Of a DNA stretch of 64,000 nucleotides, positions 5,742 to 27,446 are shown piece after piece. The translations under genes and the position numbers were made by a program. The notes under the pieces were generated by a model that made no database searches, had not been told where the DNA came from, and saw nothing but the letters and a program-made list of their open reading frames with translations. The stretch covers positions 959-64,958 of the forward strand of contig JAIPGN010000004.1 in NCBI GenBank assembly GCA_021735685.1, written 5' to 3'. Origin of the DNA: Patescibacteria group bacterium (GTDB lineage: Bacteria > Patescibacteriota > Patescibacteriia > UBA2591 > UBA6264). The stretch's first letter is position 1. Every line of letters starts with the position of its first letter.

Positions 5742-5750
5742 ATAAAGAAA

Positions 5751-6551: not shown

Positions 6552-6573
6552 TAGGGGATAGATAAAACAAAAA

Positions 6574-6596: not shown

Positions 6597-6618
6597 TGTT
6601 TTTATAGAAAAAGTGTTG

Positions 6619-8386: not shown

Positions 8387-8399
8387 TCCAAAAAATAAA

Positions 8400-9323
8400 A
8401 TGAATTCATTTGAAAATAAACAAAAAGATTCGTCAGAGAAAAAAGAGAAAATTTCTCAAACAGAAAGCAGGGAAGGGCTGATTGATTCTGCTCGTCAAAA
8501 AACCGAAAAACTGATTAAGGAATTGGAGAATAAGGTTTTTTCAGATTTTTTAGAAAAGAAAAGTCAGATTTCTTTTGAAGACTTGACTGATCAAATTTTA
8601 GAAACTGTTAATTTTATCCAAAGAACTAAAATTGGTTTAACTGGCGAAAAGGCAGAGAAAGAAATAGAGAGAGAAGAAGAAAAGGAAAATTCTCAAAAAA
8701 TTATTCTTTCTATTTTTCGGCACGACATTGGCAACAAATTAGCGGCCTTGTTCTCGGCAGTTAATCTTCTTAGGCTAGGAGACAAAGAATATGATCAAAA
8801 ATTCATTTTTCAAGATATGAGAAGTCAAATTCAGCAAATAAGAAATCTTTTGAATGAAGTGGAAAAATTAGAAAAAAGCATAGCTTCCGGAGAATTTATT
8901 CTCCAAGATGTTGAAAAGGTGTCTAAAGATATTCAGGAAGCTTACGATGATTTAAAAATTGAAATTAATCAAGAGCGTTATAAGAGAAGTTTAATTAAAA
9001 CGAATTTTTCTTTTTACTTAATTTTAGATAATATTGTGGCTAATGCAATTCGTCACGGTAAGGCCTCAGAAATAGATATTAAAATTAAAGAAGAGGAGGA
9101 TTTTATTTTGGTGGAGATAGAAAATAATGGCACTAAACTAAAAGAGGGGATTGCGGAAAAAATATTTGAAAAAGGCTTTAAAGACGAAAAAACTGGTAAT
9201 AGTGGTTTAGGTTTAACCTTAGTGCGAGAAAATATTGAAAAAAATCAGGGAAAGATTTGGGCAGAAAATACAGAAAAGGGAGTGAAGTTTATTATTAAAT
9301 TTCCTTTATTAGAGAGAGCTTAA
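8400..9323 (+). CDS. Sensor histidine kinase, soluble, with no TM segment
   Basis: H-box HDIGNKLAAL and a HATPase_c domain with N-box NAIRHG and G-boxes GNSGLGL. I chose the ATG at 8400 because the track start at 8301 overlaps the upstream gene by 86 nt. Confidence 0.6.
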   Translation: MNSFENKQKDSSEKKEKISQTESREGLIDSARQKTEKLIKELENKVFSDFLEKKSQISFEDLTDQILETVNFIQRTKIGLTGEKAEKEIEREEEKENSQKIILSIFRHDIGNKLAALFSAVNLLRLGDKEYDQKFIFQDMRSQIQQIRNLLNEVEKLEKSIASGEFILQDVEKVSKDIQEAYDDLKIEINQERYKRSLIKTNFSFYLILDNIVANAIRHGKASEIDIKIKEEEDFILVEIENNGTKLKEGIAEKIFEKGFKDEKTGNSGLGLTLVRENIEKNQGKIWAENTEKGVKFIIKFPLLERA

Positions 9324-9328
9324 AAATT

Positions 9329-9699
9329 AGGGGACAGTCCCCGTATTTTCCTCTTTCAAACCCCGCTTTCCAAGCGACTTTCCAGCTCATTTTTTCAATT
9401 TGGCGAAAAAATGGGCTTTTTGCTTTTTTAGTTATTTTTCTTTGGGAGCAGGGAAACAGCAGACAGAGAAGAAGCAATCTTCCAAAGAGCCAAGACTTTG
9501 TTTCGCCCCTTTCAGGCAAGGGCTCCCTGCCTGTCGGCAGGCAGGGCAATGACAGCAAAAAATTTGCCGGGCTACTGAAATTAGTAGGGGAGGGCTGAAC
9601 GTTTAAAAATAAGCTGATTTTTCGCCATTTTGGATTTTTGCTCTTGTTTTCTGCTTGGAGAGCTGGTTTTGAGAGCTTGCTTGAGGGGGACTGTCCCCT
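9329..9699 (+). mobile_element. MITE-like structured repeat, copy A (~370 bp), with 14-bp terminal inverted repeats AGGGGACAGTCCCC / GGGGACTGTCCCCT
   Basis: It begins ...AGGGGACAGTCCCC and ends GGGGACTGTCCCCTT. Sub-terminal segments are mutually complementary (TGGCGAAAAA / TTTTTCGCCA, CCAAGC / GCTTGG). There is an internal GC hairpin CCCTGCCTG-tcgg-CAGGCAGGG. A second copy lies at 11657-12001. Confidence 0.6.
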
Positions 9700-9826
9700 T
9701 AATTAAAAGAGTAGACTAGAATAAGGAAAATTAAACAAATACAATAGATGCATAAAAACATAGTTTGAATCTGTGTTTTTTTGCTTTTTACATCTTATTT
9801 AGGTTTGCCCTCGACATTTTTTTAGG

Positions 9827-9857
9827 TTGACAAAGGAGCTAGAATTTGCTATTCTAG
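9827..9857 (+). promoter_or_regulatory. Sigma70-like promoter (TTGACA-17-TATTCT) overlapped by the palindrome CTAGAAT-ttgct-ATTCTAG, a candidate operator
   Basis: -35 at 9827-9832, -10 at 9850-9855, palindrome at 9839-9857. A strong AGGAGG RBS lies 7 nt before the ATG at 9902. Confidence 0.45.
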
Positions 9858-9901
9858 AGCTATAAGTTCTTTAAAAAAAGAAAAAAAGAAAGGAGGATAA
9901 A

Positions 9902-10318
9902 ATGAAAAATATATTTTTCATTTTACTCGTAGTATTTTTTGTCTTTGCTTCCGCTGTGGAAGTAGAGGCAGAAAATGTTTTTTCTTCTGAGGTCGTTTAC
10001 GGCCCAGAAGAAATCCAGGGATCCCTCTCTTGGGATTACTTGGGGGCGGGGTGGCTTGCCCACTTAGGAGCCAAAACCGAGGGAGAACTATCCCTTGGTT
10101 TGGGGATTAATCTCCCAGAACTTGAATTTTTTGATTACAATAGCTTTGAGGCTATTATGGTCAATTTTCAAGCCGCCGGAGGCCTCGTCTTTGTAAAAGA
10201 CGGGGTAGCAGAAGATTACTTTTTTATCTACCCAGTCGTTCAGATAAGCGACTGGGAGGAAAGAATTTTTTTCCGAAGCGAGCAAGTGGCTCGCTTTACT
10301 AAAGAAAGTTTTGGTTGA
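9902..10318 (+). CDS. Small secreted protein (hypothetical)
   Basis: Signal peptide MKNIFFILLVVFFVFASAVEVEA. GC-richer than neighbours, with C-ending codons. Strong RBS. Confidence 0.55.
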   Translation: MKNIFFILLVVFFVFASAVEVEAENVFSSEVVYGPEEIQGSLSWDYLGAGWLAHLGAKTEGELSLGLGINLPELEFFDYNSFEAIMVNFQAAGGLVFVKDGVAEDYFFIYPVVQISDWEERIFFRSEQVARFTKESFG

Positions 10319-10551
10319 TGGGATACCACTAACCAAGTTTTCTTTAATCATGAGGATCATTCTTTTGGATTGTTTTGTCAGACTCATCATAACGGCAAGT
10401 TTTCATTTTCTTTTTTTGGGCCCCTTTATAAGAACAGGGTGTCTAAAAAAATTACGATCGAGGTCTTTCTCGGTATTAATCCCGAGAAAGAAAAAATGGG
10501 GGGAGCGAGATTTAATCTCGTTGTTCCTTAGAACTTAGAAAATCATTTTTT

Positions 10552-10585
10552 AGCTCAGGAAAAATTTCCTGAGCTAATTTTTTTG
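10552..10585 (+). terminator. Rho-independent terminator
   Basis: AGCTCAGGA-aaaattt-TCCTGAGCT followed by TAATTTTTTT. Confidence 0.5.
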
Positions 10586-10689
10586 CTTTTGTGTTTTTAT
10601 TCTGTCAATAATTTATGACAATAAAGAATATGTAAAACCCCTTAAAATAAAGATAAAACTATATTAAATAATAATACTTACAATAGCCC

Positions 10690-10718
10690 TTGACAAAAAC
10701 TAATAATTCTGCTATATT
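10690..10718 (+). promoter_or_regulatory. Sigma70-like promoter TTGACA-17-TATATT
   Basis: -35 at 10690-10695 and -10 at 10713-10718, 48 nt upstream of the RBS-supported ATG at 10766. Confidence 0.5.
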
Positions 10719-10765
10719 TTTAATATCAATGTTCTTTGAAAAAAAATGTCAAGGAGGACAAAAAA

Positions 10766-11629
10766 ATGAAAGAACGAACATTAAGAGATTTAGCCAAATC
10801 TCCCAAAATCGGAGATTTCTTGGCCAGAGAAAAAGAAATCAAGTCTTGGCCAGATTGCTGGTTTGATCCTAACGACCAATCAAAGATGAAAATCTTTACA
10901 AAAAAGGTAGAAACTGATTTACCGGCTTTTGTTCAAAAGATCAAAGAAAAAGGCAGTTTGTCTTTGGATGATATCAGGACAAACCGTGGTGAAGTTCAAG
11001 AAGAAATCAGGGAAGTAACTCAAGATTTAACCCTACTGAAGAAATATGTAGGAATGTCTTATTTCTTTCTGAAAAACAAAATTCCTTTCCCAACAATGTT
11101 ACACAAAGACAAAAAGGAGTCGGGATTGGTGTTTAGCTTTTCTTTAGAGGGCCAGTTTTATAACTGGGACGAAGAAATTGCTTTACTTCACCCTTTTATC
11201 CTTTCTACATGGAAAGGTCCAATAGATTGGCCTTGGGCGGCAAAATGTCGTTGGTTGCAAGGCGTTGGAGATTGGTTATTGATCATTGATCGTTATCTAG
11301 AAAAAGAAAAACAAGGAAATTCTTTCAAGAAAAAACTCCTTTCTTTATTGGGAGTTGATCAAAAAGTTAGAGAAATTATGGACAGAGCTAAGATGAATTT
11401 GGCGGAATTGAAAGCAGTCTTAGGCATCAATGATTTCTTCAAAAATGCTTCTCTGATCGAAAGAATTTGGGCTTCGGTAAGTGGTTCTGATTCTTCTAAA
11501 GTCAGCTTTAACGACAAAGCTCTGTGCGTAATTAAATATTACGGCGGAGCCAGTGATGAAAGAGGATGGGATGTACGCGTGGATCGTTCCACTCTCCATC
11601 TTTTCTATAATTTAAGGGGTTGCCAATAA
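10766..11629 (+). CDS. Hypothetical protein. I preferred the ATG at 10766, which has a perfect AAGGAGG RBS.
   Basis: The track ORF (10736-11629) starts at TTG. The internal ATG at 10766 sits 7 nt after AAGGAGGA. No family recognised; Trp-rich. Confidence 0.55.
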   Translation: MKERTLRDLAKSPKIGDFLAREKEIKSWPDCWFDPNDQSKMKIFTKKVETDLPAFVQKIKEKGSLSLDDIRTNRGEVQEEIREVTQDLTLLKKYVGMSYFFLKNKIPFPTMLHKDKKESGLVFSFSLEGQFYNWDEEIALLHPFILSTWKGPIDWPWAAKCRWLQGVGDWLLIIDRYLEKEKQGNSFKKKLLSLLGVDQKVREIMDRAKMNLAELKAVLGINDFFKNASLIERIWASVSGSDSSKVSFNDKALCVIKYYGGASDERGWDVRVDRSTLHLFYNLRGCQ

Positions 11630-13793: not shown

Positions 13794-14648
13794 ATGTCTT
13801 TAGGTAGGGGATTAGAGTCTTTAATTCCAGTTTCAAGTATTAAGAAAGTTAGCGATCAGGGTTTAAGTCAAACCAAAGAAGAGGTTTGTGATGTTTTGGT
13901 TAATCAAATTGAGGCCAATCCTGATCAACCCCGTAAAAGCTTTCAAAGAACTAATATGGAAGAGTTGATTAATTCCATTCAAGCGCATGGCATTATCCAG
14001 CCTTTAATTCTAAGTAAAAAAGAAGGAGGTAAGTATGAAATTATTGCCGGAGAAAGACGTTGGCGCTCTGCTAAAATTTTAAATTTAAAAACAGTTCCAG
14101 CTTTAATTCGTCCCATTGATTATAATAAAAAATTGGAAATATCTTTGATTGAAAACATTCAAAGAAAAGACCTTAATGCTATGGAAAAGGCAAAGGCTTA
14201 TCAAAGATTAATGGATGAGTTTAATTTAACTCAAGAAAAAATATCGGAAAGGTTGGGCTTGGCTCGAGCTACAGTAGCCAATGCCTTGCGTTTATTAAGA
14301 TTGCCTCAAATAATTCAAGAAGCCATTGAACAGGAAAAGATTAGTGAGGGTCATGCTAAAATTCTTTGTTCTTTTGATAGCGCAGAGAAGCAAAAAGCTT
14401 TTCTTAAGAGAATATTGGGATTAGGTTTAACGGTGCGCGAAACTGATCAGATGGCTAAAGCAAAGAAATTTAAAAAAAAGAAGATAATGCTCAATCCAGA
14501 ATTAGAGGAGAGAGAAAAGAAGTTGTCGCAATTTTTAGGCACTAAAGTTAAAATAAAAAAGAGTCAATCTAAAATTAAAGTATTAATAGAGGTTTACAAA
14601 TTAGAGGATTTAGATATAATAATTAAAAAGATAAAAGCAGATAATTAA
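13794..14648 (+). CDS. parB: Chromosome-partitioning protein ParB/Spo0J
   Basis: GLGRGLESLIP start, ParB box IIAGERRWRSAKI, and an HTH region. Confidence 0.9.
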   Translation: MSLGRGLESLIPVSSIKKVSDQGLSQTKEEVCDVLVNQIEANPDQPRKSFQRTNMEELINSIQAHGIIQPLILSKKEGGKYEIIAGERRWRSAKILNLKTVPALIRPIDYNKKLEISLIENIQRKDLNAMEKAKAYQRLMDEFNLTQEKISERLGLARATVANALRLLRLPQIIQEAIEQEKISEGHAKILCSFDSAEKQKAFLKRILGLGLTVRETDQMAKAKKFKKKKIMLNPELEEREKKLSQFLGTKVKIKKSQSKIKVLIEVYKLEDLDIIIKKIKADN

Positions 14649-14671: not shown

Positions 14672-14890
14672 ATGGCTATTGAAGTTAAAAGAAAACAAAA
14701 AGAAGCGTTAAATGTTTTTTTGCGTCGTTTTTCAGAAAGAGTAAAGCGTAGCGGAATTATTAATGATTTTAAAAAGTCAAAATTTTATCTTAAGCCTAAA
14801 AGCAAAAATTTAAAAAGAAAAAGCGCTTTAGAAAGAAAAAAGAAATCTGAAAAAATGAAATTTTTGAAAAAGGTGGGTAAAGCGAAATAA
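14672..14890 (+). CDS. rpsU: 30S ribosomal protein S21
   Basis: 72-aa basic protein; N-terminus MAIEVKRKQKEALNVFLRRFSERVKRSGI resembles the S21 N-terminal signature; lysine-rich tail. Confidence 0.7.
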   Translation: MAIEVKRKQKEALNVFLRRFSERVKRSGIINDFKKSKFYLKPKSKNLKRKSALERKKKSEKMKFLKKVGKAK

Positions 14891-14907: not shown

Positions 14908-17900
14908 ATGTTTTTTTCAAAAAATAAAATCAGTTTAATTGTTTTTCTGATTATTTTGCCTATATTTTTTTTATTTATCCTTGCTCCGCTTTCAGCGCAA
15001 GATTTGGGTTCAGGAATAGTAGAAGAAGCGGGAAGTAGTGCCGGTTTAGGAGAAGGTAGTTTGCCAATTGTTTTAGGAAAAATTTTTAAAATAGTTTTAA
15101 GTGTTTTGGGTTTAGTTGCTTTAATTCTTGCTATTGTTGCTGGAGTTCAATGGATGACCTCTGGTGGTAATTCTGAAAAAATAAAAAAAGCGAAAGCCCT
15201 TTTGTCAGCAGCCTTAATTGGTCTGCTGATTATTATTTTAGCTTATGCTTTGGTTAGTTTTATAGTTAATAAATTAACTGGAGTTAGCGGGGGGGGAGGA
15301 GGATGTACGCCAGGCTCGTGTTGTGCAGATGGATTGCGATGCGATGAGAATGGTCAATGCACAATTGCTGATCTTGCCTGTAGCACCACTTTCCCTTCTG
15401 AGAATTTTCTTTTGTCTCGTGGTGAAGCTAATTTTGACGCAAACAATCAAGTTTATTTATGTAGTAATATTAGGGCTGTTTTTAATCATAATATAAAATC
15501 TAATACAGTTAGTGCTGCCCTTAATGCCGATGCTTTGAAGGTGGTGGACACAGATGATAATGACACAGTAGAAGGAGAATGGCAGGTGGCGGGTAAATTT
15601 ATTACTTTTACACCTGATGAATTTTGGGAAGAAAACACGAGTTATGAAATGGTGATTCCTTTAACGATTAGTGACAGCAATAATAAATATTTAAGTGGTT
15701 GTTCGGCCGGTTTTTTGCCTAATGGCAATTGCGCGAGTTTAGCTTCGCAAGTAAAATGGTCTTTCTTGACTAATGATCAGCCTGATGATATTTCTCCCTT
15801 TATTAAGAATTCTTATCCAGTTAAAGATTTAACTACTCCTGATCGTAATGTTTCGCGAGCGCCAGTTTTAGAAATTATTTTTAATGAAAATATAGATTAC
15901 ACGACTATTATTGACACAAATCATGTAGATTATGACGCAGATGATCAAAGCACTTGGCATCCAATAGCAGGTAATTTTCAATTATGCAAAATAGCGAATC
16001 AGAGTACTGAATGTGTTGTTGGGAATGAATACAATAACGATAATCTCAAAGTTTCTTTAACTTCACAGGGTTTTCGCATTTCTTTACTGAATGCTCAATG
16101 GCTAGAGGCTTTTGGGTGGTACGAAATTAAAGTGGATGGGATTGAAGATATGTGTGGCAATGTTATGGAACAATCCGAGGCTTGGACTTTCCAGGCCAAT
16201 GATAGTGTGCCCGGAGTGCAAGAGTGGTGGCCGCAAGGCAATAATGTTTGTCCAGACGCGCCCATTGGTTTACGTTTCGGAACCAGTATGTATGAACAGG
16301 AGGTGTCGGTGGAAGTAATTAATACTGTAACCAATGCTATTGAATTTGCGGGATCCATAAAACCTTCTAATTTTCCCGCTGGTGGTGATTACAGGTCAAA
16401 TTTAACCACTGGTAATGGTTCTTTGCTAGTAATGGATGATAATGATGATGAAATTTCTAATCAATTTAAAATATTTCAATTAGAGTTAAATTCGAATCTA
16501 ACTAATGATAGCGAATACACAATTGAGATTAATACCGACTTAATAATTGATGTTGATAACAATACCTTAGGTAAAGATTGGAGTTTTGAGGTTACTAATC
16601 TGCAAGATTGTGCTTGCGCTCCCATTATTTATCAAACTCTCCCAGCTCAGGGACCGCGAGGCTCTTGCGTCACTGTCACTGGCTATTGTTTTAATGGGAC
16701 GCTAGAGAGACCAGCAACAATTAATGGTTTTTGGTTTGACGATGGTGATAATCCAGATGGAGAAATATCTGCTGAAATCATGAGCTCAACTTCCAATTCT
16801 TTAACCACTGTAATTCCGGCGGATTTTGGAGAGCCAATTGATGATGTTCCTGATGAATTAAGCGAAAGAATTAAAATAGTTTATGAAGATAATGGCGAGG
16901 AAGTAAATATTCCTTCGGCTAATCAATTTACTGTTATTAGCAATCAGTTGGCTCAAGGTCCTTGTATCTGGCGCTTGGCTCCAAACCAAGGTAAGGTAAG
17001 TACTAATTTTGAAATAAAAGGCATTCGTTTAGGTTCAGAAGAAGGAAATAATTATGTAGGGATGAATTCTTGGGCTGATCATTTAAATATTGAGGGGGCT
17101 TGGACCAATGAAGAAATTGATCAAGTAGTGGTTCCAGCTTTCAGCACGGCTGGAGAAAGGGATGTGAAGGTAGCTGTTTTTAATGAGGCAGAGGGTAATT
17201 ATTTATTCAGCAATCCCGCTCCTTTTGATGTTATCTTTGATCAACCCGAGGTTAGAGAATTTGGTTGCAACCCGCCCCCTAATTATTCCTCTCCCAGTCC
17301 TTACAAAAATACGCAAGACGCTTGCACGGGTATTGATTTAATGGTGGAATTTACTAAAAACATGAAAGCATATGGAGCTAATGGTGTTTTGAATGTCGCT
17401 AATTACACCATTCGAAATTGTGGAAGCGAAGAGAATTATAACCCGGCAGATTGTAGCAGTATTTATTATTCTCCCACTAATGCTAATTTTTATGACAGTT
17501 CTCAAAATATAGTTCAACTTTCTTTAGCTTCTTCTTTATCCACTAATACTTGGTATCAGGTCAGCATTCAAGGCAATGTTCGCTCTCAAGAAGAAGTGGC
17601 TATGGGAGAAGATTATATTTGGCATTTCAAAACTCGAGACAATGATCTTTGTCCGGTAGCTCAAATAGATTTAACTCCTCAAAATAGTATGATTACTGGT
17701 TGTTCGGGGAGCCAACAATATACAGCTCAGCCCGTGGCCAGTAATTGTAATTTTTTAACGGCGAGTAATTATACTTATTCTTGGCTTTCTTCTCAAACAG
17801 AAGTAGCTACTGTTGGATCTGGCCAAAATTATCAAAATACAGCTCAAGCCATTGGTGGTGGTTATGCTTGGATTAAAGTCACAGAAGATGATTCTCAAAA

Positions 17901-20900
17901 ATGGACTCGAGAAAAGTTAACAGTTAATTGTTGTTCAAGCGATCAGGATTGTTATGATCCAGATGACGATAGCACTAATCGATGCGCAGGAAGTATTTGT
18001 GATGACACTTATGGAATTTGTACGCCAATAATTAATGATTTTAGCCCTTCAGCTGGAGATCTTGAAGATTGGGTAACTATTAATGGTTGTTGGTTTAATA
18101 ATTATAACCAAAGTTATAGTCAGGTTAGCTTTAACGAAGAAGTTGCTTCTATTCCTTTTGACCGCTGCACTAATTCAGCCTGGCAAAATGAGCAAATTAT
18201 TGCTGAAGTTCCGGCTGAGCAAGGGAACCCTTTTGGAAAGATTCAGGTTGTTTCCGCTCCCTATGGTATTAATTTTGAAGTTTTGTCAGATAGTAATTTT
18301 TTAGAAGGTGATTCTTATGTGGGAATTTGTAATTTAAGGCCAGACCACGGCCCGACTGGTTTAATTACCGCTTTAACCACTAATGATAATTTAGCTCCTA
18401 GAGTGGGCCAAGATGCTGTTCATTATGGCAATCAAAGAGCGATGGCTTATCCAGAGCCTGGTTGGAGTGTGGCCTTTAAAGAAATTCGTTCTCAATCTCC
18501 AACAACTTTGCCTTTAGGGGAAATTTTAGTGAAAGTTAAGCAAGGCGGCCTTGATAGTAATTATTTGTCTTTTAATGTTGATCCAACTGGAGGTCAACCG
18601 GGAGATTTATGCATTGAAGGCTGTGGTCCTCTTTGTGATCTTGGCGCTCAGTTTTGTGAAAATCCTTATTTTTGTTTGCAACGTACCAGTGGCACTTGCC
18701 AAGATTGTCGTTGCTGTTGCCAAATTAGTGATCCAGAATCTTGTGGCACTGAATTAGAGTGTTTGGCTGGACAGGGTAATTGTACTGGAACGGAAAGGGG
18801 ACTTTGTTGTGGTTGTGAAAATGATGTTCAATGCGGAAGTGCTGGTTGTGGATTTTTAGATTCTAATCGTTGTTGCTATGCGCATCCCAGCGCAGTTTTT
18901 AATGCTTGTTCAGCTACTGATTTTCCTCAATTGGTTGGTCTTAACGCTTCTTTTGCTTTAAGCTTTGATCAACCAATGGATCGAAACCGAATGAATAACG
19001 ATTATATTAAAATTTCTAAAGCTGGACTTTGCGGAAATGACTCAGGGGAATATGACCAAGACCAGGGGAGATGTTATTTAGAAGGAGACATAGTTAGCGT
19101 TAATTCTGAAAATAATAATTCTACTGTTTTTTATCCTGATTCCTGCCGTTTAAGCACGAATCAAGAATATAAATTGGAATTCATAAAAGGCGAGAATGGT
19201 GCGGGGATTAGGTCTTTTCAGGGGGTTTCGGCTACAGCCATTGGAACCGAAGCTTGTTCTTGGGATAATTCTTTGTCTTGCGCTAATTTTGTGATTGATA
19301 CGGCCACTCAAGAGCAAGGTGGTTTTTGTGCAATAGAAACTATTAATGTTGAGCCCCGCGATTTTATAATTAAAGGATTAAATAATACGCATAATTTTTT
19401 AGCTTTAGCTTTGGACGAAGATGATAGTCCGGTTTGCGTGTCTGGCTTTGATTGGGAAAGTGAGAATCAAAGTATAGCAGCTGTTCAGCCAACTTTAGGA
19501 TTAGGGACAACGGCTCGCTCCATTAATTATGGAGAAACTTTTATCAAGGCTAGTGCTGAAGGAATAAGCTGTAGTTTAAGTGGAGATCCTTATACTTGTA
19601 CCAAACTAAAAGTTACGCCTACGGATTTACCTCAGGTGGTTGAGCAACAGAGCTGTGAAATTTGTGATTTGGGAGGTCAGTCTCCTTCGCCTTGGAAAGA
19701 TTCAGAGGAAAATTGCCCGAATGCTCAAATAGTTGTTCGTTTTAATCGTTTCTTAGAGCTAACCACTATTAACGTTAGTAATATTTTGGTTAAAGAATTT
19801 AATCCTAATACTCAGACTTATGAAGATTTTGATTATCAATCTTTAGATAAAATTAACGAAAATTCAGAAACCATTATTTACATTGATGGACCATTAAGCG
19901 CTGACAAAAATTATCAAGTTATTTTAAAAAGTGGATTATCTAATGAGGTTGGCGGTTTAAAAGATTTAAGCGGTTTACCCTTAGATGGTAATAAAAATAA
20001 TATTCAAGATGCCTCTCCTTTAGATGATTATGTCTGGGAATTTAGCACTGGTGCAACCAATTGTGTTTTGAATCAAGTTTGCGTTAATCCTCGCCAAACC
20101 ACTCAAATTAATCATCCCGGAAATCAAGTTTATTATACTGACACTTATGCTTCTAATTGTAATTATTTAGAGGCTAGTAATTTTAACGGGAATTACGTCT
20201 GGGCCTTGATCAATCAGCAACCAGCTAATCCCTCACAAGAAGTAGCAGAATTTATTTCCAGCATTGATGATTGGCAATCAGAGTTGAGCTCAAAGCATTT
20301 AGGAGAGGCTGATGTTGAAGTTAGTATTAATTCTCATCCTCAAATCAATGATAATGGCCATTTAATTGTAACTACGGTTCCGAACATAGAGTCTAGTTTG
20401 CCACAAGGAAATGAAGTTTGTCGTAATAGCATTATTCAAATTGGTTTTGATCAAGTCATGGAAGACGATTCTTTAAATGCTGATAATTTAGAAGTTTGGA
20501 GAAAATATAATAGCGCCCAGACTGGTCTGAATTGCGAAGGTAACTGTGATGAGGTTCCTCCTGTTGGTAGCAATTATCCACAAAACTTTTTGGCTAGTTT
20601 ATATTATAAAATTAAAAATATTTTTTATCCTCAGGCAGAAGCAGCTCAATTTCCTTCTGAAGATTGTTGGTGTCAATGGCCGCTTTCGGGCATTTCTTCG
20701 AGCATAGATGAGAATAATAAAAGTTTAGCTCGTCTTGATGCTGGTTTATTAAACGGAGAAGCTCAATATAAAGTGGTAATTAAAAGTGGAGTAGAGAGTC
20801 AATATGGAATTGATTTAGGATTAAATGATGAATGGCAATTTACTACTGGAGAATTATGTGAATTAACAAGAGTGGAAATTAGCCCTAGGGATGTTTATTT

Positions 20901-22245
20901 TAATAGTGCTGGTCTTTTAGAGAATTTAGAGGCGCAAGCCTTTGACGATCAGGGTAATGAAATTTTTGGAGTAAATGGTTATGATTGGGATTGGGGTTGG
21001 CAATCATCTCAACAAACTGTTGTAAATGTTAACTCGGTTGCCGGAGAACCAGAAAAAGCGGAAATTATTTCAGGTAGACAAGAGGGTATCTCTGAAATTG
21101 TGGCTACAGCTCAGTTGAATGTAGGAGGAGAGCCTACTAACACTTTAGTTGATGATCAAATTTCAGCACGAGTCTCTATTTGTGAATATCCATGGGTTTA
21201 TTTTGATGGAGGGGGGGGCGAAGGAACCAATTTTAATTTATTTTATTGTCGCGATCAAGAGCCTCTCTTGCCAAAATTACTTTATAAGGGAGGAGAAGTG
21301 AGTCCTAGTGGCTGTGGAAATGGTATTTTGCAACCCCCTGAGGCTTGTGATCTTTATGTTGGGGTTCCGTCTCATGCTACTTGTTCTTTTAATTGTTTGA
21401 GCTGGGAATGTAACGCGGGTTATTACAAAGAAAACAATATATGTCTTCCTAATATTCCCTTAGCTCCCTCTAATCTAGAAGTTGAAGTTGATAGTGATTT
21501 TCCCGGAAGTCGACTTAATTTAACTTGGAATGATAATTCTGTTAACGAAGAATTTTTTAAGATTGAAAGAAAGTCTAGGGCTTCTAATTGGCAGTTAGTG
21601 GATGAAGTAGGAGCCAATATTACTTCTTATGTCGATTCTGATTTAGATCCAGCCACTAAATATTATTATCGAGTTCGAGCCGGAAATACTTCAGGTAATT
21701 CCTCCTATACTACGGAAAGTTGGGCAATTACCCTTTGTTTAAATAATCAATGTTATTTTAACCAAGCTTGCTATAACTCTGAGCAATGTCAACCTAATTC
21801 TACCCAAATGTGCTTAAATGGCGAATGGATAAATTCTTGCGGAGATGGAATTTTAAATTGTAATGAAATTTGCGATGGGGTTATTGGAAGTATTCCCGGA
21901 AATAATACTCATTGTCAAAATGATTGTTTAAACTGGATTTGTGATGTTGGCTATGGTGATTGTGACGGAAATTCTTCTAACGGATGTGAAATTAATTTAT
22001 TAAATAACAATAGTCATTGCGGAGAATGTAATCAACCTTGTGGCGCTAATCAAAGTTGTGAAAACGGCATTTGTGTTTGTGAAAACAATTATGGTGATTG
22101 TGACGGAAATTCTTCTAACGGATGTGAAATTAATTTATTAAATAACAATAGTCATTGCGGAGAATGTAATCATCAATGTTCTGATACTGATGAATGTGAA
22201 TTTGGGCATTGTGTCGAAATAGCCCCCGCCCCCCCAACTGATTAA
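14908..22245 (+). CDS. Giant (2445-aa) cell-surface protein. The N-terminal double-TM region resembles a type IV secretion pilin (VirB2/TrbC-like). It continues into Ig-like regions, Myxococcus-type CGDG...CD cysteine-rich repeats, one FN3 domain, and C-terminal GDCDGN..NGCE..HCGEC repeats.
   Basis: Single long ORF. The N-terminus VQWMTSGGNSEKIKKAKALLSAALIGLLIIILAYALVSFIV matches the ...YMTSAGNPEKVSKAKK..IGLIIIL.AY motif of T4SS pilins (from memory). FN3: LNLTWNDNS...YYYRVRAGNTSG. Cys repeats: CGNGILQPPEACD, CGDGILNCNEICDG. Confidence 0.85.
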   Translation: MFFSKNKISLIVFLIILPIFFLFILAPLSAQDLGSGIVEEAGSSAGLGEGSLPIVLGKIFKIVLSVLGLVALILAIVAGVQWMTSGGNSEKIKKAKALLSAALIGLLIIILAYALVSFIVNKLTGVSGGGGGCTPGSCCADGLRCDENGQCTIADLACSTTFPSENFLLSRGEANFDANNQVYLCSNIRAVFNHNIKSNTVSAALNADALKVVDTDDNDTVEGEWQVAGKFITFTPDEFWEENTSYEMVIPLTISDSNNKYLSGCSAGFLPNGNCASLASQVKWSFLTNDQPDDISPFIKNSYPVKDLTTPDRNVSRAPVLEIIFNENIDYTTIIDTNHVDYDADDQSTWHPIAGNFQLCKIANQSTECVVGNEYNNDNLKVSLTSQGFRISLLNAQWLEAFGWYEIKVDGIEDMCGNVMEQSEAWTFQANDSVPGVQEWWPQGNNVCPDAPIGLRFGTSMYEQEVSVEVINTVTNAIEFAGSIKPSNFPAGGDYRSNLTTGNGSLLVMDDNDDEISNQFKIFQLELNSNLTNDSEYTIEINTDLIIDVDNNTLGKDWSFEVTNLQDCACAPIIYQTLPAQGPRGSCVTVTGYCFNGTLERPATINGFWFDDGDNPDGEISAEIMSSTSNSLTTVIPADFGEPIDDVPDELSERIKIVYEDNGEEVNIPSANQFTVISNQLAQGPCIWRLAPNQGKVSTNFEIKGIRLGSEEGNNYVGMNSWADHLNIEGAWTNEEIDQVVVPAFSTAGERDVKVAVFNEAEGNYLFSNPAPFDVIFDQPEVREFGCNPPPNYSSPSPYKNTQDACTGIDLMVEFTKNMKAYGANGVLNVANYTIRNCGSEENYNPADCSSIYYSPTNANFYDSSQNIVQLSLASSLSTNTWYQVSIQGNVRSQEEVAMGEDYIWHFKTRDNDLCPVAQIDLTPQNSMITGCSGSQQYTAQPVASNCNFLTASNYTYSWLSSQTEVATVGSGQNYQNTAQAIGGGYAWIKVTEDDSQKWTREKLTVNCCSSDQDCYDPDDDSTNRCAGSICDDTYGICTPIINDFSPSAGDLEDWVTINGCWFNNYNQSYSQVSFNEEVASIPFDRCTNSAWQNEQIIAEVPAEQGNPFGKIQVVSAPYGINFEVLSDSNFLEGDSYVGICNLRPDHGPTGLITALTTNDNLAPRVGQDAVHYGNQRAMAYPEPGWSVAFKEIRSQSPTTLPLGEILVKVKQGGLDSNYLSFNVDPTGGQPGDLCIEGCGPLCDLGAQFCENPYFCLQRTSGTCQDCRCCCQISDPESCGTELECLAGQGNCTGTERGLCCGCENDVQCGSAGCGFLDSNRCCYAHPSAVFNACSATDFPQLVGLNASFALSFDQPMDRNRMNNDYIKISKAGLCGNDSGEYDQDQGRCYLEGDIVSVNSENNNSTVFYPDSCRLSTNQEYKLEFIKGENGAGIRSFQGVSATAIGTEACSWDNSLSCANFVIDTATQEQGGFCAIETINVEPRDFIIKGLNNTHNFLALALDEDDSPVCVSGFDWESENQSIAAVQPTLGLGTTARSINYGETFIKASAEGISCSLSGDPYTCTKLKVTPTDLPQVVEQQSCEICDLGGQSPSPWKDSEENCPNAQIVVRFNRFLELTTINVSNILVKEFNPNTQTYEDFDYQSLDKINENSETIIYIDGPLSADKNYQVILKSGLSNEVGGLKDLSGLPLDGNKNNIQDASPLDDYVWEFSTGATNCVLNQVCVNPRQTTQINHPGNQVYYTDTYASNCNYLEASNFNGNYVWALINQQPANPSQEVAEFISSIDDWQSELSSKHLGEADVEVSINSHPQINDNGHLIVTTVPNIESSLPQGNEVCRNSIIQIGFDQVMEDDSLNADNLEVWRKYNSAQTGLNCEGNCDEVPPVGSNYPQNFLASLYYKIKNIFYPQAEAAQFPSEDCWCQWPLSGISSSIDENNKSLARLDAGLLNGEAQYKVVIKSGVESQYGIDLGLNDEWQFTTGELCELTRVEISPRDVYFNSAGLLENLEAQAFDDQGNEIFGVNGYDWDWGWQSSQQTVVNVNSVAGEPEKAEIISGRQEGISEIVATAQLNVGGEPTNTLVDDQISARVSICEYPWVYFDGGGGEGTNFNLFYCRDQEPLLPKLLYKGGEVSPSGCGNGILQPPEACDLYVGVPSHATCSFNCLSWECNAGYYKENNICLPNIPLAPSNLEVEVDSDFPGSRLNLTWNDNSVNEEFFKIERKSRASNWQLVDEVGANITSYVDSDLDPATKYYYRVRAGNTSGNSSYTTESWAITLCLNNQCYFNQACYNSEQCQPNSTQMCLNGEWINSCGDGILNCNEICDGVIGSIPGNNTHCQNDCLNWICDVGYGDCDGNSSNGCEINLLNNNSHCGECNQPCGANQSCENGICVCENNYGDCDGNSSNGCEINLLNNNSHCGECNHQCSDTDECEFGHCVEIAPAPPTD
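21952..22170 (+). repeat. Perfect 81-bp tandem duplication with a 138-bp period (copies at 21952-22032 and 22090-22170), inside the giant gene
   Basis: The identical string TATGGTGATTGTGACGGAAATTCTTCTAACGGATGTGAAATTAATTTATTAAATAACAATAGTCATTGCGGAGAATGTAAT occurs twice. Each copy encodes YGDCDGNSSNGCEINLLNNNSHCGECN. Confidence 0.9.
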
Positions 22246-22281: not shown

Positions 22282-25200
22282 ATGTATATTAAGGTACAAA
22301 AAAATATGATTAGCCGAAAAAATATTAAAAATTTGATTTTCCTCGGCTTGCTAACTTTTTTAGCTGGAATTTTTTGGTTTAATTTGCAAACAGATTTAGT
22401 TCATGCTGATCAAGCGGGCTTGGTTAAAGAATTTTTGTTTACTGTTCAGGGATCATCCGGAGATGCTATTGGAGTTAAAATAATGGAAAATCCACAACGA
22501 TTGACTCCTTCAGCTTGGTATCAACAGAATGTTCAAAATCCGGGAAATCCCAGTATTTTTATGGTCGATGGTTATTATGCTTTACGAGAGGGAAGAACTG
22601 TTTATGTGGGAGCAACTAATGTCAGCGGAGTTTCAAATGAAAACATTTCTTCTTATATTTATATTATTTCTTATAACGAAGGAGCTTCTGCGGAAACTGT
22701 TAATATTTTTAATCAATTACTAGAGAAATTTACTTTTAACACTAATCTTACTAACGCTGATCAAAGAGGAGAGATTCAAAGAGATTTGTTTAGAATTTAT
22801 GATTTAGATCAAATTTCTAGTGAACTAGAATCTTACTATGGTCAGCATGGGTCTTACCCTCCTATATCTTCTGGTTCTTATTTGAAGGGGGAGACCTATA
22901 GTGCTTGGCCTTCTTGGCAATATACTTTTGGCCAAGCTTTGGGGAAATCTTTGCCGGTTGATCCTTTAAATCGTTTTTATGGATCTTGTGCTGGTTGTCC
23001 CGATAACCCTCAACAATCCAATTATCAGTGTGATGGGACTTGTTATAATCCTTTAAATAAAGAATTTGCCCATCCCAACAATTCACATGTTTATGGTTAT
23101 TATACGCCAACTGAAAATGATTGTAGTGGGCAAGGATATGAGTTGTCAGCTAATTTTGAATATTATCCTTTTTCGGCCACTCCTCCTTTGCCAGCAGTAA
23201 GATGGTTAGGGGATAATGAAATTCAAATTTCTTTGCCAGATATCCTTGGTAAAAATAATTATATTGTTTCTCAAGGATTGGGGGAATGTGGTGATCAGGT
23301 TTTAAATGCTTGTGAGGAGTGTGAAATTATTGACAGCAATATGGTTCCTTCTGGCAAAACTTGTGCCAGTTTAGGATTGGGCTCTGGGTCCTTGAGTTGT
23401 GTTGATTGTCATTGGGATGGTTGTGGTAAACTAAGTAATGGAGAAAATTGTTCTTTGGATGTTGAGTGTTCTTCTGGCTATTGCAGCCCAGATGGAGTTT
23501 GTTGTAATACAGCTTGTCAAGGTCTTTGTCAGTCTTGTAATCAGTCTGGTCAAGAAGGCACCTGTCTTTTGGTGCCATCTGGAGAGGACCCAGGAGACGT
23601 TTGTTCGGACACAGCTCCTTGTTTAACTGGTAACTGCGATGGCCTTGGAGCTTGTGAGCTAGAATCAAGTGGTACTTCTTGTGGTGATTGTCAGTATTGT
23701 TCAGTAAATGGACAATGCTTGCCAGTTCCTTTTGGAGAAGATTACAATAATCAGTGTTCAGAAGATTCTAGTAATTGTGAGGCTGGCTATTGCGATGGTT
23801 ACGGCTCTTGTACTTACTATCCCGCTGGTTTTATTTGTGGTGATTGTAGATATTGTAGTAGCGCTTACCCACCTGATTGTAATGTTGTCCCCGGAGGCAC
23901 TAATTGGGGTTTTAATTATTATTGTGATAATAATGGTAATTTTGCTTGTTATGTCAATTGGGGAAATTGTGACGGGGATTGGAATACAGGTTGCGGAACT
24001 AATCTTTTGCTTGATCCGGAAAATTGCGGAGAATGTGATAATTCTTGTAGCGATAATCAAACTTGTCAATCAGGAGAATGCGTTTGTTTGCCTGGATATG
24101 CGGATTGCAATGGTGATCCCAGTGATGGCTGTGAAGCTTCTCTAAATAGCACTGATCATTGTGGTTACTGTGGCAACGATTGTCCTTCGGGTTATGACTG
24201 CTTAAATGGATCTTGCTCTCGTCCTGGTTCTTGCGGAGACGGAATTGTTCAGCCTGATTTTGAAGATTGCGATCCTAACGAAGATCCTATTCTTTCTTGG
24301 AGTCCAGGATTAGGACAACACTGCAACGATGTTTGTGAGATTGTGATTGATTTGAATATTTTACAAAACTATCCAGGAACAACTAATGATATTGATTTAC
24401 CGTCCATTGTTAATGAGTATAAAAATGACTCTGAGTTTCAATTAGCAATGAGAGACGTTGTTGTTACGTCTCAATCTTTAAGTTATTTTAACGATGATCC
24501 CGATTTTTTTATTCCTTCGGGAAACAGATTGGAATATTATAATGTCCTGGTTTTTGGTTGGAAAGATTGCAATGGTTCCGAAGATTTAAGCCCAGAGGCA
24601 GCAGCAGCAGTTGACGATTTTATTGACCAAGGTGGTTCTGTTATTTTTGGACATGATACTATTTGGCAAGAAGCTAATTCTGTTTGCGGAGGAACACATA
24701 CTAATTTTAATACTCTAAAGCATCATGCCGGCATTGGAGAGCTTAATAATTTTTCTGGCGTTGATCTTTTTAATAATGTGGGAGCTAATTTTAATTTAGC
24801 TGGGGGAAAACTTTTTACCATTCCTTATGTTTTAGAAGAAGAATTCGATGTTCTTTCTACTCATTTAAGTGGTCAAGTTTTAGATCCAGACACTTGTGAA
24901 GCTCCTGAAGGACTCAAAGTTTGGTATTATGCTAAAATTGATGGTTCTTTGGATTATAATAAACCTTGGGCTAACACTTGCGGAAAAGTGGAGATGATTC
25001 AATTGGGGCACATTACCGGAGAACCAGAGGATATGGAGAAAAAAGCTTTAATTAATATGCTTTATTATGTCGCTACAGCTGGAACTGATGTAGCTAATAA
25101 TCCTTCTGGCGGAGGAGGCGCACTAGGCACTGGCATATTTGGTGATTCTTGTGAGAGTGATGATGATTGCAGTGGCGACTTAAATTTAATTTGTGGCTTA

Positions 25201-25380
25201 GATGATACTTGTGCTTGTGGTGATGATTGGGGGAATTGTAATGGTAATCCTGATGATGGTTGCGAGACAAATTTATTAACTACTTGGTTACATTGTGGGG
25301 CTTGCACAAATCAATGTGACCCTGACGAAGATTGTGTAGATGGAACATGTGAGGGAGGAGGCGGTGGTAACCAATGGTAA
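22282..25380 (+). CDS. Large (1032-aa) secreted Cys-rich protein with CGDG...CD (Myxococcus-type) and xDCNGxPxDGCE..L....HCG.C repeats
   Basis: N-terminal signal/TM. Repeats include NWGNCDGDWNTGCGTNLLLDPENCGECDNSC, GYADCNGDPSDGCEASLNSTDHCGYCGNDC and DWGNCNGNPDDGCETNLLTTWLHCGACTNQC. The repeat type matches the C-terminus of the giant gene. Confidence 0.8.
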   Translation: MYIKVQKNMISRKNIKNLIFLGLLTFLAGIFWFNLQTDLVHADQAGLVKEFLFTVQGSSGDAIGVKIMENPQRLTPSAWYQQNVQNPGNPSIFMVDGYYALREGRTVYVGATNVSGVSNENISSYIYIISYNEGASAETVNIFNQLLEKFTFNTNLTNADQRGEIQRDLFRIYDLDQISSELESYYGQHGSYPPISSGSYLKGETYSAWPSWQYTFGQALGKSLPVDPLNRFYGSCAGCPDNPQQSNYQCDGTCYNPLNKEFAHPNNSHVYGYYTPTENDCSGQGYELSANFEYYPFSATPPLPAVRWLGDNEIQISLPDILGKNNYIVSQGLGECGDQVLNACEECEIIDSNMVPSGKTCASLGLGSGSLSCVDCHWDGCGKLSNGENCSLDVECSSGYCSPDGVCCNTACQGLCQSCNQSGQEGTCLLVPSGEDPGDVCSDTAPCLTGNCDGLGACELESSGTSCGDCQYCSVNGQCLPVPFGEDYNNQCSEDSSNCEAGYCDGYGSCTYYPAGFICGDCRYCSSAYPPDCNVVPGGTNWGFNYYCDNNGNFACYVNWGNCDGDWNTGCGTNLLLDPENCGECDNSCSDNQTCQSGECVCLPGYADCNGDPSDGCEASLNSTDHCGYCGNDCPSGYDCLNGSCSRPGSCGDGIVQPDFEDCDPNEDPILSWSPGLGQHCNDVCEIVIDLNILQNYPGTTNDIDLPSIVNEYKNDSEFQLAMRDVVVTSQSLSYFNDDPDFFIPSGNRLEYYNVLVFGWKDCNGSEDLSPEAAAAVDDFIDQGGSVIFGHDTIWQEANSVCGGTHTNFNTLKHHAGIGELNNFSGVDLFNNVGANFNLAGGKLFTIPYVLEEEFDVLSTHLSGQVLDPDTCEAPEGLKVWYYAKIDGSLDYNKPWANTCGKVEMIQLGHITGEPEDMEKKALINMLYYVATAGTDVANNPSGGGGALGTGIFGDSCESDDDCSGDLNLICGLDDTCACGDDWGNCNGNPDDGCETNLLTTWLHCGACTNQCDPDEDCVDGTCEGGGGGNQW

Positions 25381-25493: not shown

Positions 25494-27446
25494 ATGTTTG
25501 ATGAAATTAAAACCGAGGGAAATCAAGATAAAAAAAATTCTGATCAAGGATTGAATCAGAAATCAGCTCCCTCTTTTAAAGCTCCTTCTTCGTCTCCACA
25601 ACCAGAAGTTAATTCAGGCAATTCCTCGTCTCAAAAATCAAAAGAATTTGAAGTTCCAGAATTAATCAAAAAAGATATTTTGAAGAAAGTTGAAGATAGT
25701 CAAGAAAAAAAAGAATCAGTGTCTCCTCAAGAAGAAAAAATTTACGTAATGCCTGATAAATTTAAACAAAATTCTGGATCAGGTTCAGGAAGAAAGGGCA
25801 AGAAAGGAGTAAAAATTTTTTTAATTATTCTTTTTGTGCTTTTGATTGGCGGAGGCGCTTATTATTATTTTTGGTCGCAACAATACATTGAACCCGAAAT
25901 AATTGCTCCAGAAGAAGAGGTAATTCCTGAAGAAGGTGAAGGAGAAGAAGTGTTGCCAGAAGAAGAGGTAATTCCTGAAGAAGGCGAAGGAGAAGAAGTG
26001 TTGCCAGAAGAAGAGTTAATTCCTGAAGAAGAAACTGAGGAAGAATTTTTTGAAGAAACTAATATAGAAATTGAAGTCAGAGATCAAGAAGAGATGTTAA
26101 TTTCCAAATTTAATTTTCTTTTACCGGAAGGTTCTTTAGACGCAGGATCAATAGTAGAGGCTAGCGGGACCTGGGACCAAGAGGAGGTTGCCCTCGGAGA
26201 TGACCTGTATACAGTTTTGGGAGCGATTTATGAAATTGATTCTGAAGCAGATTTAGTTTTTTTGAAAACCGCTAGTTTAGAAATATTATATAATCAAGAA
26301 TTAGTGGAAGATTTTTGGGAAGATGAAATTACTTTAGGCTATCTTAAGAATGAAACTTGGACCCCCTTACTTAGCACTGTTGATTCAGAAGAAAATGTAG
26401 TAAAAACAGAATTAGACTTCTTGCCAGCTAATACTATTGCTTTGATTGTAGAGAAAGATAAATTGATTCCGGAGATTGAGAAATTACAGATTGCGCCCCA
26501 TATTTCTTCCAGCCTAGATGATGATAATGATGGTCTGACCAACATTGAAGAATCTATTTTTGGTTCAGAGCCTAATAACCCAGATACAGATGCCGATGAA
26601 GTCCCAGACGGGCAAGAAGTTCTTAATTTAACCGATCCTCTCCAGTCTGATAATCAGCTATCTACTTCTGGACTAATAAAGGTTTATATTAACCCTACTT
26701 TTTCTTATAGTCTTTTTTATCCTTCTTCTTGGTTAACGCGGCCCATTCCAGAAACGGACAATCAAGAAGTTTTAATCGTTACTAATACTGGTGAATTTTT
26801 TAGCATTAATGTTGAAAATAATCCTGAAGAATTAAGCCCAACTGATTGGTATTTGCGTCAATCTCCTAATCTTGATTCAGAAACTCTTTTAGAGGTAATG
26901 GTCCATGAACAGCCAGCAGTTTGGAGTGCAGATCGCTTAACGATTTATGTGTCTCGACAAGATAAAATTTATCTTTTGTCTTATTTGTTGGGAACCAGCT
27001 CAGAAGCTAACTTCAAAACTACTTTTCAGATGATGATTAATAGTTTTCAGTTTGTTACTCAACCTCAGGGCAGGGCTAATGGAACTTTAGTTAGTTATCC
27101 TGATCAACCAGAAGTTTACTTAATTGAAAATAACAAGAAGCGAGCTTTCATCTCTGGAGAAATTTTTGAAAAATTGGGATTTAACTGGGAAGATGTTATT
27201 GAGATTCCTTTAGAAGAAGAATATGAAGATGGCCAAGATATTGTTGGATACTTAGACGGAACTTTAATTAAGTATCCCGATCAATCAGAGGTTTACTTGA
27301 TTGAAAATAACAAAAAACGTGTTTTTGTTTCGGGAGAAGTTTTTGAGGGTTTAGGATTTAACTGGGAAGATGTCATTGAGATTCCTCTAGAAGAAGAGTA
27401 TGAAGATGGTCCTCCTATTGAAAGTGCAGGTGGGGGCGTTAATTAG
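25494..27446 (+). CDS. Membrane-anchored (single TM, type-II-like) surface protein. It has an acidic PEEEVIPEEGEGEEVL tandem repeat, a DDDNDGLTN...DTDADEVPDGQE calcium-binding-like motif, and two C-terminal ~60-aa repeats of the DGTLIK...VYLIENNKKR type.
   Basis: TM segment VKIFLIILFVLLIGGGAYYYFW after a low-complexity Ser/Lys-rich N-terminus. DNA tandem repeats are at 25909-26030 and 27079-27411. Confidence 0.7.
   Translation: MFDEIKTEGNQDKKNSDQGLNQKSAPSFKAPSSSPQPEVNSGNSSSQKSKEFEVPELIKKDILKKVEDSQEKKESVSPQEEKIYVMPDKFKQNSGSGSGRKGKKGVKIFLIILFVLLIGGGAYYYFWSQQYIEPEIIAPEEEVIPEEGEGEEVLPEEEVIPEEGEGEEVLPEEELIPEEETEEEFFEETNIEIEVRDQEEMLISKFNFLLPEGSLDAGSIVEASGTWDQEEVALGDDLYTVLGAIYEIDSEADLVFLKTASLEILYNQELVEDFWEDEITLGYLKNETWTPLLSTVDSEENVVKTELDFLPANTIALIVEKDKLIPEIEKLQIAPHISSSLDDDNDGLTNIEESIFGSEPNNPDTDADEVPDGQEVLNLTDPLQSDNQLSTSGLIKVYINPTFSYSLFYPSSWLTRPIPETDNQEVLIVTNTGEFFSINVENNPEELSPTDWYLRQSPNLDSETLLEVMVHEQPAVWSADRLTIYVSRQDKIYLLSYLLGTSSEANFKTTFQMMINSFQFVTQPQGRANGTLVSYPDQPEVYLIENNKKRAFISGEIFEKLGFNWEDVIEIPLEEEYEDGQDIVGYLDGTLIKYPDQSEVYLIENNKKRVFVSGEVFEGLGFNWEDVIEIPLEEEYEDGPPIESAGGGVN
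25909..26030 (+). repeat. 45-bp tandem repeat (about 2.7 copies) encoding PEEEVIPEEGEGEEVL
   Basis: CCAGAAGAAGAGGTAATTCCTGAAGAAGGTGAAGGAGAAGAAGTGTTG is repeated head to tail. Confidence 0.85.
27079..27411 (+). repeat. ~180-bp tandem duplication, roughly 85% identical, encoding two copies of the ~60-aa surface repeat
   Basis: GGAACTTTAGTTAGTTATCCTGATCAACCAGAAGTTTACTTAATTGAAAATAAC... recurs at 27259. Confidence 0.8.

Follow-up and report, generated by a model that had tools for sequence, protein, structure and literature searches.

Why a pilin-like hairpin of the type IV secretion system (T4SS) kind should stand at the front of a huge surface protein is the question raised by a locus of a Patescibacteria group bacterium (contig JAIPGN010000004.1). 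In the 64-kb stretch of DNA analysed here (the window), a single open reading frame (ORF) with an ATG start at 14908..22245 encodes a protein of 2,445 residues, hereafter the giant; all features lie on the forward strand unless stated otherwise, and residue numbers are those of the giant unless another protein is named. Patescibacteria account for a large part of bacterial diversity, and their attachment to and exploitation of other cells are largely obscure. We judge with moderate confidence that the giant is a membrane-anchored cell-surface fibril, most likely an adhesin, and a core envelope component of a Parcubacteria-group lineage. An identical protein is in the public databases as MCF7907098.1, where the name "Ig-like domain-containing protein" hides both the pilin module and the conserved architecture.

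The N-terminal module was first compared with known pilin families. Residues 52-119 matched the Pfam family PF18895 (T4SS_pilin) with 34.2 bits (E 2.6e-8, model positions 5-71 of 71), above the gathering cut-off of 26.6 bits. The nearest relatives of residues 1-142 in the database search were free-standing PF18895 pilins of 122-149 residues and at most 59% identity, one of which sits in a tandem array of pilin genes. In the alignment, these small pilins stop exactly where the Gly5 linker of the giant starts (...SFVISNLTGVTNA and then the stop, against ...SFIVNKLTGVSGGGGGC in the giant). The T4SS-pilin N-terminus proposed in a preliminary description of this stretch is therefore upheld by both the family match and the small-pilin relatives, and on sequence grounds the N-terminus is established as a bona fide member of PF18895, the Patescibacteria-type pilin family.

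The module begins with a Sec-type signal peptide (residues 1-30, 14908..14997) ending in ...PLSA↓QD, with the cleavage itself inferred; family members keep the A↓Q end, which is similar to the site where VirB2 is cut. A VirB2-like two-helix hairpin follows (15061..15288), for which the AlphaFold2 (AF2) model gave helices at residues 52-84 and 89-127 with a predicted local distance difference test (pLDDT) score of ~90. Between the helices lies a basic loop with four Lys (residues 85-98, SGGNSEKIKKAKAL, 15160..15201), and the module ends in the Gly5 linker GGGGG (residues 128-132, 15289..15303); Gly-rich linkers are conserved at this position among the giants. All 39 giants compared have G79, T84, G87, A95 and G105, and 36-37 of them have W82 and K96. 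With a mean pairwise identity across giants of 49%, against 43% for the head domain described below and 24% for the signal region, the hairpin core is the best-conserved part of the giant.

A tie of this module to classical VirB2 appears plausible but weak. The classical TrbC/VirB2 family PF04956 scored the giant N-terminus at 13.5 bits, under its cut-off of 27.9 bits, and the match to the Mycoplasma integrative and conjugative element family "Mbov_0395 pilin-like conjugal transfer protein" in NCBIfam was likewise sub-threshold. PF18895 was matched by all 21 aligned modules (best E 1e-13), and 11 of the 21 also matched PF04956 at sub- or near-threshold level (best E 3.1e-6). In hhalign, comparison with five VirB2/TrbC sequences from Ti-type plasmids (Agrobacterium/Acetobacter), a narrow VirB2 alignment, gave a probability of 29% and an E value of 5.8e-4; the alignment was in register and took in the "WM" ahead of the loop. 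The motif that had been given as that of VirB2/TrbC-type pilins is the PF18895 consensus (YGGxxWMTSxGNxEKIxKAKxxxxxxxIGLVIILLAYAIxxFV) and not the classical VirB2 one, since PF04956 stayed under its cut-off; the family assignment thus held, the classical part did not, and the fold search did not inform on it. In that search, Foldseek with the AF2 N-terminal model against PDB returned nothing at E<=0.001 and only generic helical hairpins (F-BAR, ATP synthase c), and the module profile found no solved pilin among PDB sequences. The matches of this profile to designed "Pizza" propellers were rejected as spurious, arising from a repeated 18-residue stretch. Phmmer detected no second pilin module in any of the six frames of the window. 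The class III signal peptide, a prepilin-peptidase motif of the G↓(F/M)T(L/I)xE type, is absent from the first 60 residues of both the giant and the downstream protein, and no type IV pilus (T4P) pilin family of Pfam matched the giant.

Three hydrophobic segments only are present in the giant by hydropathy (residues 1-34, 50-87 and 92-127). The stretch after the signal peptide, which forms the mature N-terminal end, is acidic, and the four Lys lie in the loop; by the positive-inside rule, the loop is predicted to be cytoplasmic in the membrane state and both hairpin ends to face outward, so that the C-terminal ~2,300 residues, with their Ig-like and Cys-rich regions, are predicted to be outside the cell. 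This layout matches that of T4SS pilins before assembly, which reside in the inner membrane with two transmembrane helices (10.1101/2022.04.28.489814; PMC5018250), and mature VirB2 begins with Gln (QSAG) after an Ala-rich cleavage site (10.1101/2022.04.28.489814). Pilins of the F pilus have their termini on the outer face and their basic loop along the lumen (PMC5018250); the loop of the giant may be the equivalent of this lumen-lining loop of T4SS pili.

The mature giant is ~263 kDa with an isoelectric point of 4.1 and has 110 Cys, every one in the ectodomain. The Pfam scan of the whole protein identified T4SS_pilin, five stretches of Big_5 and fn3, together with weak TIG-like and Cys-rich (Stig1/MXAN_6577-like) matches, and no enzyme domain. 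Directly after the linker comes a membrane-proximal Cys-rich knot (CTPGSCCADGLRCDENGQC..., 15304..15387), a motif kept in homologues. Big_5 Ig-like domains were found at residues 181-263 (15448..15696), 516-561 (16453..16590, the best stretch of this domain) and 790-895 (17275..17592), with a partial match at residues 1822-1860 (20371..20487). A TIG/IPT-like domain at residues 1040-1115 (18025..18252) matched weakly, under the cut-off, and a central Cys-rich region at residues ~1226-1330 (18583..18897) has weak similarity to the Cys-rich parts of the downstream protein. Near the C-terminus, a fibronectin type III (fn3) domain (residues 2186-2268, 21463..21711) is followed by Cys-rich repeats made of GDCDGNxxNGCExNLxxxxxHCGxC units (residues 2277-2436, 21736..22215). 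Pfam picks up only 5-7 of what are probably 15-20 beta-sandwich domains in the giant. Self-BLAST found no long internal repeats, and no LPx[TSA]G sorting motif occurs anywhere in the giant, which ends in ...CVEIAPAPPTD with nothing hydrophobic past residue 127. HINT, toxin or immunity-like features were not found in it either, its C-terminus consisting of the Cys-rich repeats only.

The gene that follows (22282..25380) encodes a secreted protein of 1,032 residues with its own signal peptide, a head domain (its residues 42-295, 22405..23166; head hidden Markov model (HMM) E 1.4e-101) and Cys-rich repeats. The N-terminal half of the head has a Mog1/PsbP-like fold and the C-terminal half a type IV pilin/pseudopilin-like fold. 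More distant giants contain, internally or close to their C-terminus, a domain with 28-62% identity to residues ~47-294 of this protein, and in 14 database homologues the head domain lies inside the giant itself, whereas the head HMM did not match the window giant (E 2). Since the head is absent from the window giant and present in the next gene, the window clade represents a fission (split) variant, and the giant and the downstream gene form one unit. The 1,032-residue protein would accordingly be a functional partner of the giant that arose by gene fission, and the 35% identity between its Cys-rich repeats and those at the C-terminus of the giant suggests that the two proteins associate. In a relative with an 82%-identical giant, an extra gene (L004:17759-18886) absent from the window lies between the giant and the head protein; its 375-residue product has a GLUG motif and a weak Peptidase_M26_N match.

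To define the distribution of this architecture, the databases were searched with the full-length giant, the module and the head. The full-length search returned ~20 homologues of 1,700-3,500 residues and 82% to 26% identity, each with precomputed PF18895 and Big_5 matches. The head scan of species-representative genomes, made with a 4-sequence alignment, gave 56 loci, with Candidatus Kerfeld-, Kuenen-, Falkow-, Uhr- and Parcubacteria among the named lineages. In the 38 loci with the 5' end present, the head ORF is a giant of 1,434-3,733 residues with the N-terminal pilin module (E 1e-27 to 1e-41). The module stands in frame at residues 1-~130 to ~165 in all ~20 database homologues and the 38 genomic giants, and eight contigs, from different samples, carry the 82%-identical orthologue unbroken. 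The giant family is therefore widespread and not a singleton, being a conserved core gene in >50 related species. The single frame and the fusion of the pilin module, by way of a Gly linker, to a huge Ig-like, fn3 and Cys-rich ectodomain, as given in the preliminary description, are thus real; neither of the two outcomes that it had named against itself was found, the pilin model being matched above threshold and the frame being unbroken in independent assemblies. A fusion of a VirB2-type module to a giant ectodomain was not found described in the literature searched.

The exhaustive HMMER search with the module gave 31,505 cluster representatives at E<=1e-3, and the best 150 of these comprise small pilins, proteins with 2-17 tandem modules and ~20 long single-module proteins. 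As many as 78 of these 150 best matches are single polypeptides with 2-17 tandem PF18895 hairpins and up to 1,775 residues (P0036-P0183, e.g. P0036, P0039, P0043, P0044), and those with two modules keep an AHAQ↓G signal-peptidase-like motif between them; such proteins could be polyprotein pilin precursors or multi-hairpin membrane proteins. Ten module-bearing proteins of middle length (337-930 residues) were scanned and almost all are Big_5 proteins, so that use of the module as a general-purpose anchor for unrelated passengers is unsupported, save for one PG_binding_1 fusion. This 265-residue protein (L002:481-1278) has a weak PF18895 match and a PG_binding_1 domain, and its gene adjoins three that encode small pilins; other passengers may hence also be joined to the pilin module. 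Falkow-/Uhrbacteria-like genomes carry a second PF18895 and Big_5 protein of 600-750 residues between yqeY and the giant (L040, L045, L048-L050, L054-L057, L059, L060, L064 and L065; e.g. L055:1952-3814), and these proteins are real paralogues of the giant. One giant of 3,043 residues (P0019, L006:10001-19132) has PT-HINT/intein-splicing domains, typical of polymorphic toxin systems, after the head. In a Kerfeldbacteria metagenome-assembled genome (MAG; L043), the pilin module lies in a 215-residue ORF (4771-5415) overlapping the start of a 1,866-residue ORF (5291-10888), a split that is probably a frameshift or sequencing error of the assembly and not natural.

The gene order around the giant is also conserved. 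In the window, the order is dagK, parA, DUF192, parB, rpsU, the giant, the head protein, a 650-residue TSP3/PsbP-like protein, mreC, a likely mreD and PBP2. Across the 56 loci, it is signal peptidase I, histidyl-tRNA synthetase, rpsU, yqeY, the giant, the TSP3 protein, the PsbP-like protein, ybeY, dagK, ftsA and ftsZ, the close relatives of the window having the parAB...mreCD-PBP2 version instead. The rpsU gene (ribosomal protein S21, 14672..14890) ends 17 nt upstream of the giant and is the upstream neighbour in 33 of the 56 loci. The 650-residue membrane protein (25494..27446), in which a TSP3-like Ca-binding motif is combined with a PsbP-like domain, has a homologue 3' of the giant in 45 of the 56; a TSP3 protein is near the giant in 48, ftsA in 38 and yqeY in 33. 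The giant, head, TSP3 and PsbP-like proteins form a conserved four-gene module, and the giant was seen once per locus. The 650-residue protein also has a Glu/Pro-rich repeat region and a duplicated C-terminal unit of ~50 residues (GTLVSYPDQPEVYLIENNKKRAF...). The best promoter-like site of the region, TTTACA-16-TATAAT (14593..14620, a consensus match only), lies 5' of rpsU, and a sequence scan found no terminator-like site between rpsU, the giant and the next gene; from these sites, the giant may be co-transcribed with rpsU.

As the preliminary description had noted, the window is free of T4SS components, none being found among the ~50 ORFs scanned. No T4SS gene was present in the annotated flanks of four homologues (precomputed Pfam); in the +/-10 kb flanks of the ~56 related loci, the search covered a chosen list of housekeeping, division and partner genes, which turned up at conserved positions, and was not aimed at T4SS genes. 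This fixed housekeeping and cell-division neighbourhood points away from a T4SS locus.

The giant was then compared with known systems. Patescibacteria have a chromosomal T4SS akin to monoderm conjugation systems, with VirB4 in 2,417 of 3,035 genomes, VirB2-like pilins that are often arrayed and relaxases mostly absent, and "no adhesins, such as PrgB, were detected" (PMC12102498). Because relaxases are mostly absent from these systems, the label "conjugative-type" that had been given to the module is doubtful (PMC12102498). Southlakia cannot do without its T4SS and the accompanying pilin array (PMC10633639), and a 2025 review calls a monoderm pilus an "intriguing possibility" and describes T4SS pili as extended at their base, with a VirB5 tip complex on top (PMC12857230). 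With the PF18895 pilins of Southlakia epibionticum and Nanosynbacter TM7x, the giant shares the Pfam family above threshold, the A↓Q signal end, the two helices and the WMTSGGN...KAKK turn, at no more than 59% identity. Those pilins, however, are of 100-150 residues and occur in arrays, often beside virB4 (PMC12102498), whereas the giant has ~2,300 more residues and a single copy per locus, among housekeeping and division genes, and T4SS genes were not found in the window.

With classical VirB2/TrbC/TraA pilins (PF04956; A. tumefaciens VirB2, F TraA), the giant has in common a long signal peptide, predicted cleavage before Gln, two hydrophobic helices with a short basic loop and membrane residence before assembly. 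Half of its aligned relatives match TrbC weakly, the giant itself falling short at 13.5 against 27.9 bits, and it differs from conjugative pilins in its monoderm host and huge C-terminal extension. Modular type IV pilins (S. sanguinis PilB, ETEC (enterotoxigenic Escherichia coli) CofB) follow the same logic of a pilin carrier, a short linker and a grafted module with a functional or adhesive task, a carrier-plus-passenger design described for PilB (Raynaud et al. 2021, PMC8179133). The giant differs from them in its unrelated pilin class, lack of a class III signal peptide and ~10 times larger appendage, and its incorporation into a filament is only a proposal. A further likeness is to the giant adhesins with Ig repeats (LapA/SiiE-type, Ebh/Bap-type) and to PrgB. 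These adhesins share a plan of a proximal anchor, a long Ig-like stalk and distal binding modules, which is also that of the giant, an acidic protein with Ca-binding partners nearby. In contrast to them, the giant has no LPXTG motif, no module of the type I secretion system/RTX kind or for outer-membrane retention was found in it by Pfam, and a pilin-family hairpin is in the place of the anchor.

Our preferred reading, a surface fibril or adhesin held by a pilin-family anchor, would work as follows. The signal peptide would direct Sec export and be cut after Ala30, and the VirB2-family hairpin would be kept in the cytoplasmic membrane, like T4SS pilins before assembly, in the topology predicted from the sequence and the AF2 model. 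Outside, the chain would continue through the flexible Gly5 linker and the disulfide knot into a stalk of Big_5, TIG-like, fn3 and Cys-rich modules; this acidic and Cys-rich stalk of ~2,300 residues would cross the wall and, judging from its length, probably extend over several tens of nm. In most relatives, the chain carries the conserved head, with its PsbP-like half and pseudopilin-like half. In the window lineage, the head has moved to the separately secreted 22282-25380 protein, which probably docks on the giant, and the two further conserved downstream proteins, with TSP3 Ca-binding repeats and a PsbP-like domain, would belong to the same module. Since the hairpin is the most conserved part, it would be more than a greasy anchor and probably still makes pilin-family contacts, with lipid, other pilins or pilin-handling proteins. 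From this architecture, we infer an extended-fibril form and, from the domain types, putative adhesion to another cell or surface; the episymbiotic attachment suggested in the preliminary description is a hypothetical role.

Several points weigh against this reading. Adhesion is deduced solely from domain types, the Foldseek search against PDB does not separate the hairpin from any other helical hairpin, and hhalign against genuine VirB2 gave a probability of only 29%. The conservation of the hairpin exceeds the needs of simple anchoring, leaving room for a pilus model, and the fixed place beside division and elongation genes could be compatible with a structural envelope role.

The pilus model takes the giant as a modular T4SS pilin whose hairpin would be extracted by the Patescibacteria T4SS into a VirB2-like pilus, which we regard as possible though unlikely. 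It is consistent with the retention of all pilin-family signature residues in a hairpin that is the most conserved part of the giant, and with small pilins, one of them in a tandem array, as the nearest relatives. The F-pilin C-terminus is outside, with the basic loop lining the lumen (PMC5018250), and a C-terminal fusion after the Gly linker is therefore geometrically allowed; modular design also has a precedent in another filament class, the type IV pilin PilB (PMC8179133). The phylum offers both a machine and a vacancy, with VirB4 in 2,417 of the 3,035 genomes and no PrgB-like adhesin found (PMC12102498), and with pilin arrays essential in Southlakia (PMC10633639). A 2,300-residue appendage on every subunit of a packed filament would, however, be impossible. 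Because T4SS pili are started by a tip complex and then elongated from below (PMC12857230), the giant would in such a pilus most plausibly be the first (tip) layer, showing the Ig stalk and head at the tip in place of a VirB5/PrgB-type adhesin. T4SS genes were found neither in the window nor in the four annotated flanks, the ~56 loci not having been directly searched for them, and a T4SS pilus is so far unseen in any Patescibacterium. That the giant represents a modular T4SS pilin, the first of its kind, which nucleates or caps a pilus in a monoderm, carries its own very long adhesin and replaces the VirB5 tip protein or PrgB-type adhesins missing from Patescibacteria, seems to us slightly more doubtful still; if true, the pseudopilin-like head would be a possible physical link between T4SS-type and T4P-type surface systems.

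The one copy per locus, fixed between rpsU-yqeY and ftsA-ftsZ or mreCD-PBP2 in ~50 species, could also suit a structural role in the envelope, for instance as an S-layer-like coat, as a wall-spanning scaffold or as a division/elongation spacer, in place of a host-binding one. The acidity of the giant, its Ca-binding TSP3 partner proteins and, weakly, the possible co-transcription with rpsU agree with such a role, which is nevertheless improbable in our view. The order of many unrelated genes is kept in reduced genomes, and synteny is therefore weak evidence of function; moreover, the proximal anchor, Ig stalk and distal head are the plan of a fibrillar adhesin, and the stalk and C-termini diverge fast with varying domain content (one with PT-HINT), as is typical of organism-facing proteins. 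That one member, P0019, is what would favour a contact-dependent polymorphic-toxin carrier delivering a cleavable C-terminal toxin to neighbours, but the window giant is without HINT, toxin or immunity-like features, making this very improbable. Least credible of all is an artefact, whereby a frameshift, missed stop codon or chimeric assembly would have merged the genes of a small pilin and of a downstream surface protein. Although free-standing pilins end exactly at the junction and the L043 MAG is split there, no separate signal peptide lies past the junction, eight contigs carry the 82% orthologue unbroken and the module is in frame in the ~20 database and 38 genomic giants; this explanation is refuted by the independent intact assemblies, with a chance of being right that is close to nil.

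The T4SS of Patescibacteria with its VirB2-like pilins has been singled out by reviewers as unique among monoderms, and the 2025 survey of 3,035 genomes reported no associated adhesin; here, a pilin module carries what we read as a 260-kDa Ig-domain fibril. The giant, which is among the most stably positioned genes of the whole lineage, offers a tangible candidate for what forms the surface fibrils or the attachment organelle on these cells. It is also evidence that VirB2-family hairpins can carry or anchor large passengers, in parallel to the modular type IV pilins, and the giant, head, TSP3 and PsbP-like proteins provide a defined four-gene module to seek.

Some minor observations concern the genomes and the rest of the window. 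Among the species-representative MAGs in which this Patescibacteria-specific locus occurs (loci L014-L069), about 20 bear the title "uncultured Gammaproteobacteria bacterium", and one each is titled Methylomirabilis, Planctomycetota and Thermoplasmatota; such titles seem to be placeholders or mistaken, or to result from bin contamination. NCBI taxonomy places Falkowbacteria within the Parcubacteria group, and the Kerfeld-, Kuenen-, Falkow- and Uhrbacteria relatives presumably form one GTDB class (ABY1). In the window, the ORFs at 27-1079, 35803-37167 (reverse strand) and 60169-61437 (reverse strand), of 350-454 residues, had no Pfam match at E<=0.001. At 33502-35702, an IF-2B-family (e2b2-like) gene adjoins a RuBisCO large-subunit gene, a pairing that we take to resemble the nucleoside-salvage (AMP) pathway of candidate phyla radiation bacteria and archaea.

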